The notes below the pieces were generated by a model. The model was not told where the DNA came from, did no database searches, and saw nothing but the letters and a program-made list of their open reading frames with translations. 64,000 nt of DNA, taken from the sequence record PQ438393.1; one strand, given 5' to 3'. Below are positions 45,790-47,526 of this stretch, one piece after another (the stretch's first letter is position 1; each line of letters opens with the position of its first letter). This DNA comes from Escherichia phage vB_Eco_J-01. The translations under genes and the position numbers were made by a program.

Positions 45790-46147
45790 ATCAGACTCCT
45801 TTATAAATTTACGTTTCATGCTACACATCATACAGCGTCTTTTCATCTATTACAAGAACAGCAACATAGGAACATCATTAATGAAGGATTTAGTATAGGA
45901 TTTCCCTATCAATTATTCTATATATACCTATTATTTTTAACACACCCCTTTGTACATAATATAGACAAATAAATATCTATGCCACAAAAATTTTCCGGTA
46001 TACCCGATTTATTTCGACACACTCCCTTTTCATAAGCGTAAAGTCAATAATATCAATAACTTGCCGCAAAATACTGCTCGCTTGCGAGAGGTGCTTAACG
46101 CGATTTTCAGCGCCCCCCGATTTCTGCCGACCGTCCCCCTCAAATAT

Positions 46148-46184
46148 CAATGAGAATAATTATCATTTGCATTATCATTCAATG
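46148..46184. promoter_or_regulatory. Fur-box-like hexamer repeat cluster
   Basis: AATGAGAATAATTATCATTTGCATTATCATT. Confidence 0.35.
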
Positions 46185-46346
46185 ACTTATAAGACTTTTG
46201 ATTATTTTCTGAGCAAGCAAGGCACTACTCACAACAAAACAGATAAATTCTAAGTAAATCAATGGCTTGGCAAGTCTAAACATCTATATACACCTTGCCA
46301 AATGAAATGATCTGGCGTGAAATAGTGCCGCCCGTGGAAGATAGCT

Positions 46347-46365
46347 GATAATGATTATCATTTGC
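46347..46365. promoter_or_regulatory. Fur-box-like site
   Basis: GATAATGATTATCATTTGC versus consensus GATAATGATAATCATTATC. Confidence 0.4.
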
Positions 46366-46811
46366 ATACTTTCTGTACTATAAAACCGACTAAAAATCAA
46401 GATAATTCTACTTTATTGCGCTTTTAAGAAAGTAGGCTCAACAAATAAGGGAATACATTACAACAAATGACAATAGTTAGGGCAACAAATAACAACAAAT
46501 AGTAAGTTATATGGGGCAATAGTATGAAAAATCATCTATTCAGATATAAATAATTTTGCGCAATAGTAGTAATATTTTCTTGACAAGAAAGATTTCTTTG
46601 TGTTCACATAGCGCCCCCTGGAAGGTGGCGCATTATGATCATCAATGTCATTATTCACCATGTTTATTATTGCATAGCTTATTACTTAGCTTATATTATA
46701 GCCAATGTTCCAAACATTAGCTAATAATAACGCACCGCAACAATGTAAGGGATACAATATACCATGTATATTGTTGCGCTTGCAGTTGTTGCAAGCTACA
46801 TAAGCACAAAT

Positions 46812-46834
46812 AATAACTATCGGTGATAGTTATT
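46812..46834. repeat. perfect 10 bp inverted repeat with 3 nt spacer
   Basis: AATAACTATC ggt GATAGTTATT. Confidence 0.6.
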
Positions 46835-47239
46835 ATGTGGGGTGTGTAGTTGCGTTATTATTAGCCGCCTATGTGTCCGGCATAGGCTGCTAATGATACG
46901 CTTGCGAATTATATTTCTTGTTATAGTTATTGTATGAAATGATTACTTAGGTAATAGATAGGAAGGTAAAGGTTAGATCATAAATAGATAGGATATGAAT
47001 TATTTAGTAATGTTACTAACGATTTAATAGTTACTTTGTGCAATAATTCAATAGATTATAGTTATAGTTTTAAAGGTTAGATAGATTATATTTAGCTTGG
47101 TAATGATTTATATTAGTTATTGTTGTTTAATATAAGGTTATCAATGAGATAGTAACAGTAAGTTATAAATAAAGGTGAGATAATTAGCTTTAATTTAGTT
47201 AGATAGCTTATTATTTTATAGGTTAGATGGTCTTAAGTT

Positions 47240-47314
47240 AAGAATGATTATCATTATTACATTATTCAGTTTATTGCATAAATAATCAGTTATAAATGAG
47301 AATGATTATTATTT
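47240..47314. promoter_or_regulatory. two Fur-box-like sites
   Basis: AAGAATGATTATCATTATT and AAATGAGAATGATTATTATTT. Confidence 0.35.
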
Positions 47315-47526
47315 AAGAGGAAAGACAAGAAAAAGGCTGTTTTTGCCAGATAGTTGCATGAAGAAATTAAAAACAAGCGGTCTAAAACACGTTGTAAGCG
47401 CCTTATGATCTTCATGGTATGGTTGTTCATCTGCTCCTTGATTAGCTCGATACCGCGATCTATTCACTTTTTTCGGTGAACGTTTTTGATAGGTAAAAGC
47501 TATCATCTTTATTGAGGTAAAAAGAA

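Follow-up and report, generated by a model that had tools for sequence, protein, structure and literature searches.

The longest gene-free stretch in a 64,000-nucleotide section of the genome of Escherichia phage vB_Eco_J-01 (PQ438393.1; this section is referred to as the window, and its numbering runs 5′ to 3′ along the + strand) is, with high confidence from comparison with related genomes, the genome-end or concatemer-junction region of this phage, and contains its direct terminal repeat (DTR). Next to the repeat, on the + strand, lies a nested folded element of ~170 nucleotides (nt), P1–P5 (46720–46888), which we regard as very probably real and under selection and which has counterparts in ~250 phage genomes of two subfamilies. 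The best explanation as a whole is a genome-end region with a cis-acting fold that would prime replication; our confidence in this combination stands midway, a compromise between a well-supported identity and a weakly supported mechanism. A preliminary description of the same DNA had proposed a candidate regulatory hub or origin. The hub was broadly right in that the region is cis-acting DNA conserved across genera, but the description had missed the genome terminus and concatemer junction.

Genome ends and direct terminal repeat

A 1.67-kb query from the region matched, over its full length and at 90–94% identity, about 50 phi92-like Escherichia phages of the genus Justusliebigvirus (phi92, alia, PaulScherrer, Antha and others; subfamily Stephanstirmvirinae). 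Phapecoctavirus (phAPEC8-like) and Klebsiella relatives shared ~72% identity with the query, in islands, and a plasmid homology search with it found none. Judged by these matches, the source phage is a Justusliebigvirus, that is, a phi92-like myophage; the + strand of the window is the reverse complement of the phi92 record.

In the phi92 record (FR775895.2), 343-bp DTRs are annotated at 1–343 and 148270–148612. The left end of phi92 is 97% identical to positions 45876–46438 of the window, and the window from 46096 onward aligns with base 1 of the right end of phi92, reverse-complemented. Because positions 46096–46438 align end to end, at 97% identity, with both DTR-L and DTR-R, we assign these 343 bp as the DTR, of which the assembled sequence holds a single, collapsed copy. 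The terminal bases agree as well: the phi92 record starts with AGCCTAC, the reverse complement of 46432–46438, and ends with CGCGTTA, the reverse complement of 46096–46102. Phage BME3 has a 342-bp DTR as determined by PhageTerm (PMC12210895); its record starts at the base equivalent to 46096 and carries the folded element at 620–806, the same spacing as in the window. The first base of the Mt1B1_P17 record is 2 nt away from the position that corresponds to 46096, and DTR ends have been reported for all Stephanstirmvirinae. A 2.6-kb 'non-coding' box (104013–106618) has been described in rV5, and in the rV5-like phage LL12 a 459-bp PhageTerm DTR lies inside the equivalent non-coding region.

Both boundaries of the repeat fall within blocks conserved across genera and share the core GCT|YAAC in direct orientation (15-lineage alignment; the bar marks the physical end). 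End-site block A (GTGCT|TAAC, 46091–46099, + strand) places one end between 46095 and 46096; in the alignment, GTGCTTAACGCGA(T/A)TTT is almost invariant across genera, with the boundary form GTGCT|TAACGCGA(T/A)TTT. End-site block B (AGGCT|CAAC, 46434–46442, + strand) places the other between 46438 and 46439 and reads GTGCT|CAAC in other genera and G(G/T)GCT|CAACA across the alignment. Four direct CAACAAAT repeats (46439–46500, + strand) begin exactly at end-site B. Four of the 12 matches to this motif in the window fall within these 62 bp, all on the + strand, and the array was also detected by TRF. LL12 carries eight (T)GACAC repeats in an array that likewise begins exactly at a DTR boundary. 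A universal cut motif was considered and rejected: the GTGCTYAAC 9-mer alone is non-specific in the window and LL12 shares no motif between its two boundaries, so the core GCT|YAAC is taken as a feature of the Stephanstirmvirinae blocks only.

A covarying folded element beside the repeat

The folded element begins 282 bp from the DTR boundary and was found once in the window with a covariance model. Its outer helix P1 (46720–46734 with 46851–46865) is a perfect 15-bp inverted repeat that encloses P2 (46737–46778), P3 (GCTTGCAGTTGTTGCAAGC, 46778–46796), P4a (46797–46801 with 46844–46848) and P4b (46812–46821 with 46825–46834; arms AATAACTATC/GATAGTTATT), and is followed by P5 (GCCTATGTGTCCGGCATAGGC at 46867–46887; 46867–46874 with 46880–46887). 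The preliminary description had quoted three hairpins here at exactly correct coordinates. These palindromes are real and exceed chance by both fold energy (z = −8.1) and strong covariation, but they are not separate hairpins; they are helices of one nested covarying structure, enclosed by P1.

Compensated changes were present in every variable helix in an alignment of 18 phages. With an unfitted MAFFT alignment (21 distinct sequences) as input, RNAalifold predicted P1, P3, P4a, P4b and P5 with 47 pairs, of which 13 had compensatory double changes. A search with the covariance model R1 yielded 26 distinct homologues of full length, among them metagenomic and IMG/VR lineages with an entirely different P4b sequence. 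In the final alignment of these 26 (A4), built with a stricter cut-off that excluded reverse-strand echoes of the palindromes, standard pairs make up 98.9% of the 1326 cells, and compensatory double changes occur in 15 of the 51 pairs. None of 500 shuffles reached the observed pairing and double-change values, and sliding the partners by 1–3 columns left 26–56% pairing and at most four pairs with double changes. The middle of P4b illustrates the exchange, with U-A in nine homologues, U-G in 10, C-G in four, G-C in two and A-U in one. Covariation establishes the nested structure P1–P5 on the + strand.

G:T cells far outnumber A:C cells on the + strand (73 vs 6, or 25 vs 6 without two invariant or nearly invariant G:T columns), which indicates that the + strand of the window is the functional one. 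The predicted fold energy is −84.6 kcal/mol on this strand and −73 kcal/mol on the − strand. Relative to all neighbouring genes the + strand is antisense, and its direction is inward from the physical end. We lean slightly towards the element working as RNA rather than as single-stranded DNA.

BLAST searches placed the element in 134 phage records of Stephanstirmvirinae. Its rV5 version occurs in 118 records of Vequintavirus, almost without variation between divergent flanks. With the covariance model, the counterpart in rV5 reaches 36.9 bits; its outer helix, perfect over 18 bp, has a different sequence, hairpins resembling P2, P4 and P5 are present, and the G-rich junction is the same. In P1 alone, five compensated double substitutions separate the window from rV5. 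In LL12 the element begins 212 bp beyond the DTR boundary, in the same orientation as in the window. A pattern scan of metagenomes gave 54 matches, mostly due to chance, of which nine matched model R1 at full score (L024, L026, L034, L038, L042, L043, L056, L062 and L063); six of these, distinct and complete in length, are part of the final alignment.

A homology search for hidden non-coding RNA, as suggested in the preliminary description, yielded no Rfam family; the covariance model recovered a covarying fold with 26 homologues. Rfam 15 gave no match in 46700–46900 at E values up to 10, no gathering-score match in the whole window, and none at E values up to 0.1 in five homologous loci. The literature searched, which does not extend to the phi92 genome paper, describes no RNA, origin or Fur sites for these phages and makes no mention of the folded element, the cut-site blocks or the repeat arrays, noting only the repeat or the absence of open reading frames (ORFs). 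Of the features reported here, the terminal repeat was already known for the genus; apparently new are the folded element, the boundary blocks with their arrays and the conserved Fur-consensus sites.

The spacer before P1 (46611–46718, + strand) is variable and contains a hairpin (GCGCCCCCTGGAAGGTGGCGC, 46611–46631) and a small hairpin (AATGTTccaAACATT, 46704–46718); several lineages have a hairpin of unrelated sequence directly before P1. Tandem repeats of variable number flank the element, as 12-bp TAGCTTATTACT units upstream (46667–46702) and TGTATGAAATGATTAC-like units downstream (46909–46950), with one to four copies among phages that are otherwise 92–94% identical. One such repeat is annotated as a repeat_region in the muut record (locus L003, 3993–4054). 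In the rV5 locus (L077), ~10 ACTGTT(T/C)AC repeats lie upstream of the element (2180–2330), and a 20-bp direct repeat, CCATGCCATTCGTTTGCAT, stands on both sides of it (2345–2364 and 2637–2656). In Stephanstirmvirinae the surroundings of the element contain a shorter motif, GCTAAT(G/A)AT, repeated in the same manner (five matches in the window vs 1.7 expected, three of them at the element). Just before P1 of rV5 (L077 2406–2436) are two mutually exclusive hairpins, GGTGACCtttGGTCACC and CACCCcttcGGGTG, followed by TTTCTAT; the pair is terminator/antiterminator-like on the + strand and is missing in the rV5-like phages nomine and YP-6.

AT-rich tract and transcription signals

As the preliminary description had stated, the region is AT-rich, with 32.0% GC compared with 37.1% for the window. 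The most extreme part is the tract directly after the fold (46900–47350, + strand), with 23.5% GC, a G>C skew and only 25 C in 451 nt; TAAAGGTTAGAT occurs in it four times (46967, 47071, 47170 and 47217, + strand). Clustered direct repeats adjoining an AT-rich tract, as looked for in an origin, are present as four copies each of CAACAAAT and TAAAGGTTAGAT. Iteron arrays, an AT-rich and C-poor tract and a folded element pointing into this tract are together compatible with an origin of replication.

A scan with the sigma-70 consensus, whose coverage does not extend to phage-specific promoters, gave 13 promoter-like matches in the region, compared with 13.0 expected from shuffled sequences. The upstream flanks of the 26 homologues, compared by eye, contain no conserved −35/−10 elements. 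The TATAAATA element noted in the preliminary description is indeed present at 46545–46552, but it is at chance level as a T4-type late promoter (four matches vs 7.7 expected) and was rejected. The hairpin AGGGCGC/GCGCCCT at 47527–47558, which ends the gp30.8-like gene on the − strand, was also flagged on the + strand but has no T-run there, so no intrinsic terminator would halt + strand transcripts that come from the folded element.

An inverted repeat, TTGGCAAG-N20-CTTGCCAA (46267–46302, − strand), is located inside the DTR, and its hexamers are conserved while its spacer is variable in the 15-lineage alignment. Read on the − strand it contains a sigma-70-like TTGGCA-17-TAGACT (46301 down to 46273; 9 of 12 positions) directed towards the left gene block, and it might represent a putative promoter facing these early-looking genes.

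Fur-box-like palindromes

Fur-like sites were also reported in the preliminary description, and they proved to be non-random. The core AATGATNATCATT with at most one mismatch has 10 matches in the window (0.79 expected), nine of which fall in two non-coding regions, and the 19-bp Fur consensus GATAATGATAATCATTATC with at most three mismatches has five (0.04 expected). Four 7-1-7 palindromes belong to the genome-end region. Box 1 (TGAGAATAATTATCA, 46151–46165) and box 2 (TGATAATGATTATCA, 46346–46360) lie inside the DTR; boxes 3 and 4 (47239–47253 and 47297–47311) are 58 bp apart, beyond the AT-rich tract. Box 2 matches all 14 specified positions of the 7-1-7 Fur consensus, TGATAATnATTATCA, with two or three mismatches to the 19-mer. 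Box 1, which is preceded by the conserved CAAATATCAA and keeps its position in all Stephanstirmvirinae lineages examined, differs from the 7-1-7 consensus at one position, and the other boxes at one or two.

This layout is kept in most of the Stephanstirmvirinae lineages examined, with the DTR pair separated by 170–207 bp and boxes 3 and 4 by 58–67 bp; the exceptions for boxes 3 and 4 are three loci with only one box at the threshold and locus L021, which ends before the second position. In rV5, four box-like sites are all upstream of its element, in a layout of their own. In the consensus of the phage family, TGAGAATnATTCTCA, the fourth positions are occupied by G and C. Many boxes have a G in place of the T that Fur prefers (TGAGAAT), and for this reason the binder may be a phage protein. 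A dimeric protein with Fur-like specificity, either host Fur or a phage protein, is the binder expected from these sequences, and the four palindromes are candidate operator or architectural sites for it. DNA looping between the two DTR boxes was rejected, as their spacing of 170–207 bp shows no helical phasing. The only promoter-like match that overlaps a box (46150–46178, ATGAGA-17-TATCAT, 9 of 12) is weak, and its −10 element is not conserved.

The second-largest ORF-free gap of the window (57640–58300) contains five 7-1-7 palindromes (TGAGAATnATTCTCA) within 110 bp (57761–57869), followed by three tandem units of ~62 bp, TTGAACTTTTCATTTTCAAAAT...AACTTTAAATAAT. Since these palindromes belong to the same family as the DTR boxes, this gap is probably another control region for the same DNA-binding protein. 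A weak Rfam match to PrrF at 47285–47345 (E = 5.8) is probably driven by the Fur-like box there.

Coding content and neighbouring genes

The description of the region as coding-poor was borne out. Positions 45847–47308 (1462 bp) are the longest stretch of the window without an ORF of at least 60 amino acids (aa), compared with 573 bp for the runner-up. The first gene of the left block has the arrangement AAGGAG-6 nt-ATG with a probable start codon at 45789, as read from the sequence, and the non-coding stretch is on this basis taken as ~45790–47526. When 13 ORFs (at least 30 aa, 45850–47560) were compared by tblastn with 22 related loci, stops or frameshifts in relatives broke all but one, a 46-aa ORF on the − strand (47430–47290) with an AAGGAG ribosome-binding site, which is annotated in PaulScherrer and is doubtful as a gene. 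It is intact in nine relatives, exclusively within Justusliebigvirus; in Phapecoctavirus the start codon is missing or in-frame stops occur, and its conserved C-terminus coincides with a Fur-like DNA palindrome. The Antha and 92CQ records annotate eight to nine tiny coding sequences (CDS) in the region. A search for tRNA and tmRNA genes in the window found none.

The flanks differ from those in the preliminary description, which had placed a terminator closing a cassette array on the left. No such terminator was found; both neighbouring gene blocks are on the − strand, so that the right block reads towards the gap and the left block away from it. An intrinsic terminator is located at the right edge instead (47545–47527, − strand). 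It belongs to a gp30.8-like gene (47561–47944, − strand; Pfam Phage_30_8, E = 2e-29), and terminators are annotated at the same site in relatives. No function could be recognised for the flanking proteins. A unique non-coding leader (45790–46095) separates the terminal repeat from the first gene of the left block; it contains several weak sigma-70-like matches on the − strand and a block conserved across genera (45888–45979).

The first ORF of the left block (in segment 45424–45876) was listed with 140 aa and more likely has 121 aa, starting from the ATG at 45789; its protein has only PHROG matches of unknown function. The ~400-bp segment that bears it is absent from phi92, with identity resuming at 45413–45478, and segment 45424–45876 is by this comparison a mosaic insertion just inside the genome end. 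Several GenBank records labelled 'Campylobacter phage' (MG0656xx; host Campylobacter jejuni) share 92–99% identity with these coliphage regions, and their genome sizes are those of coliphages; they appear to be Justusliebigvirus and Vequintavirus genomes that were mislabelled or are contaminants.

Proposed mechanism and alternative explanations

By analogy with T7-type phages, terminase may recognise the boundary blocks together with the CAACAAAT array that starts at the cut; it would cleave concatemers at these sites, with DNA synthesis duplicating the repeat. The fold would be a cis-acting 5′ domain, structured, of a transcript of the + strand that enters the AT-rich, C-poor, G>C-skewed tract and forms a stable hybrid there, and this hybrid could prime inward DNA replication in an arrangement like that of ColE1 RNA II, T4 oriF or T7 phiOR. 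A pre-primer RNA for such an R-loop origin is suggested by the inward orientation of the fold and by the AT-rich, C-poor and skewed ~450 bp that directly follow it. Replication priming as the function of the folded element is nevertheless a tentative assignment, rather doubtful when taken by itself.

Several observations weigh against this explanation. The end positions were transferred by homology from phi92, BME3 and Mt1B1_P17, and the two DTR boundaries of LL12 have no common cut motif. Folded DNA also tolerates G:T, and strand bias alone is therefore no proof of RNA. Neither a conserved sigma-70 promoter upstream of the element nor an intrinsic terminator downstream of it was found, the authors of the rV5 genome predicted no promoter in the equivalent region, and a literature search for this phage group yielded no transcript data. 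In rV5 only a few bases separate P1 from a preceding terminator-like hairpin that has a U-run, which leaves no room there for a promoter of the element itself. No initiator gene or DnaA boxes were identified, the latter sought by reading the sequence only, and the cumulative GC skew shows a local blip only, with no genome-scale switch.

The fold could instead work as single-stranded DNA, the displaced or nicked + strand near the end snapping into P1–P5 either to prime the synthesis that duplicates the repeat or to be recognised by terminase as the packaging start. We consider this possible and about equally likely as a priming RNA. Such a role would suit the similar position and identical orientation of the element beside the DTR in two subfamilies (282 bp here, 212 bp in LL12), the very strong conservation of its sequence including the loops, which fits recognition by a protein, and the failure to find promoter or terminator signals for an RNA, with the rV5 hairpin abutting P1; the 3′ end of the + strand, after a nick to the right, would also point back to the repeat if folded. 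A snap-back primer, however, needs one hairpin rather than a multi-helix junction with conserved junction bases, and the frequent T:G variants in mid-helix (10 of 26 in P4b) are more typical of RNA helices. Phages of this group moreover encode a T7-like primase-helicase (PMC3606486; PMC12210895), so that no special priming site is obviously needed. A free-standing RNA gene acting in trans, for example by binding protein or in host takeover, and located here by descent with no role at the end or in replication, would explain the covariation, the G:U bias and the conserved loops and junction, all seen in many protein-binding RNAs, as well as the compact 170-nt unit closed by a long 5′/3′ helix and its conservation while the flanks diverge. 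We judge it improbable, given that neither a recognisable promoter or terminator nor an Rfam match was found and that position and orientation relative to the DTR are similar in two subfamilies whose left flanks differ.

The remaining two alternatives concern the DNA around the fold. In an iron-responsive control region, host Fur bound to the four palindromes would gate early promoters at the genome end, with the palindromic structure incidental or serving as a transcription insulator; this would not exclude the other explanations. The agreement of box 2 with the 7-1-7 consensus and of box 1 with all but one position, the four-box layout in most Stephanstirmvirinae lineages examined (with four sites in a layout of its own in rV5) and the second cluster of five boxes at 57761–57869 speak for it. 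The boxes overlap the −35/−10 elements of no convincing promoter, though, and stand ~87 bp upstream and 108 bp downstream of the expected start of the one conserved promoter-like site; the spacing of the DTR boxes lacks helical phasing, the G found in many boxes where Fur prefers T would allow a phage protein to bind, and the covariation of P1–P5 is left unexplained. Such a control region also seems unlikely. A hidden protein-coding gene, whether the 46-aa ORF or the short ORFs annotated by depositors, is the least credible of all and very improbable: the ribosome-binding site, the intact frame in nine relatives of the genus and the tiny CDS of Antha and 92CQ stand against the interruption of every other ORF in close relatives, and against the defective Phapecoctavirus versions of the 46-aa ORF and the palindrome that accounts for its C-terminus.

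A broader and more speculative proposal would make P1–P5 the founding member of an undescribed class of structured elements (a ~170-nt RNA or a strand-specific DNA fold) that is obligatory in the genome-end biology of rV5-, phAPEC8- and phi92-type myoviruses. It would serve as a pre-primer of inward replication or as a cofactor of packaging and end processing recognised by terminase, a functional analogue of the phi29 packaging RNA (pRNA), with host Fur or a phage mimic recruited to the repeat as a component of this machinery. We find this conceivable, at less than an even chance.

Comparison with known systems

The genomes of T7 and T3 end in a short DTR flanked by the short-repeat arrays SRL and SRR, their near-terminal promoters phiOL and phiOR double as secondary origins, and dyad symmetry, or a proposed hairpin intermediate, is involved in processing of the right end. 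As in T7, the genome studied here is non-permuted with a short exact terminal repeat (343 bp here, 160 bp in T7), a short direct-repeat array abuts the repeat boundary, several hundred gene-free bp adjoin one end, a dyad-symmetric element is near the repeat, and early genes read away from the other side of the junction. Different from T7, the phage is a 146–150-kb myovirus without promoters for a single-subunit RNA polymerase, the dyad element is a five-helix, covarying and strand-biased structure of ~170 nt, the ends share the GCT|YAAC core in direct orientation, and Fur-like palindromes occur inside the repeat; there is no sequence homology between the region and T7. Homology is direct with phi92, BME3, LL12 and rV5: the repeat segment is 97% identical to the phi92 repeat and sits between the gp30.8-like gene and the first early genes, and the non-coding region of rV5 and LL12 holds a DTR and a counterpart of the folded element.

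With ColE1 RNA II and T4 oriF and oriG the region would share a structured RNA domain and, behind it as transcription proceeds, a tract that melts easily. In this tract the strand equivalent to the RNA is richer in G than in C, which favours a persistent RNA–DNA hybrid able to prime the leading strand. Unlike in ColE1 RNA II and T4 oriF and oriG, neither a promoter nor an RNase H site nor an antisense regulator was identified here; there is no sequence or Rfam similarity to the ColE1 and T4 origins, and the hybrid tract has just 23.5% GC. The phi29 pRNA (RF00044) is likewise ~170 nt long, has its gene no more than a few hundred bp from a genome end and is built from a long helix of its 5′ and 3′ ends that closes a multi-helix junction, followed by a 3′ hairpin domain. 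The present element has no Rfam match, however, and these phages have a canonical large terminase and DTR ends that are not protein-primed; covarying loop–loop complementarity, a trait of phi29 pRNA, was not seen when alignment A4 was inspected by eye. The resemblance concerns general shape only. For a fold in single-stranded DNA, the parallels would be, for a primer of repeat duplication, the hairpin intermediate proposed for T7 concatemer processing and, for a terminase recognition site, the strand-specific and highly folded single-strand origins of rolling-circle plasmids and filamentous phages. The Fur-like boxes differ from those at Escherichia coli promoters in lying off recognisable promoters, inside the terminal repeat of a virulent phage.

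Implications for rV5-, phAPEC8- and phi92-like phages

Phages related to rV5, phAPEC8 and phi92 belong to the broad-host-range coliphages that are isolated most frequently, and therapy cocktails make use of them. Our analysis pins the ends of the present genome, by homology, to single bases, with conserved blocks and repeat arrays around them, and adds a strongly selected fold beside the terminal repeat that has no Rfam entry. For phage engineering, these features are targets that mark sites to be spared by insertions and define the contents required of a minimal cassette for packaging or replication. The Fur-consensus sites in the terminal repeat of a virulent phage suggest a possible and testable link between the iron status of the host and infection. 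The folded element raises the question of whether a large, terminase-packaging myovirus may depend on a structured RNA or a folded DNA strand at the end of its genome.

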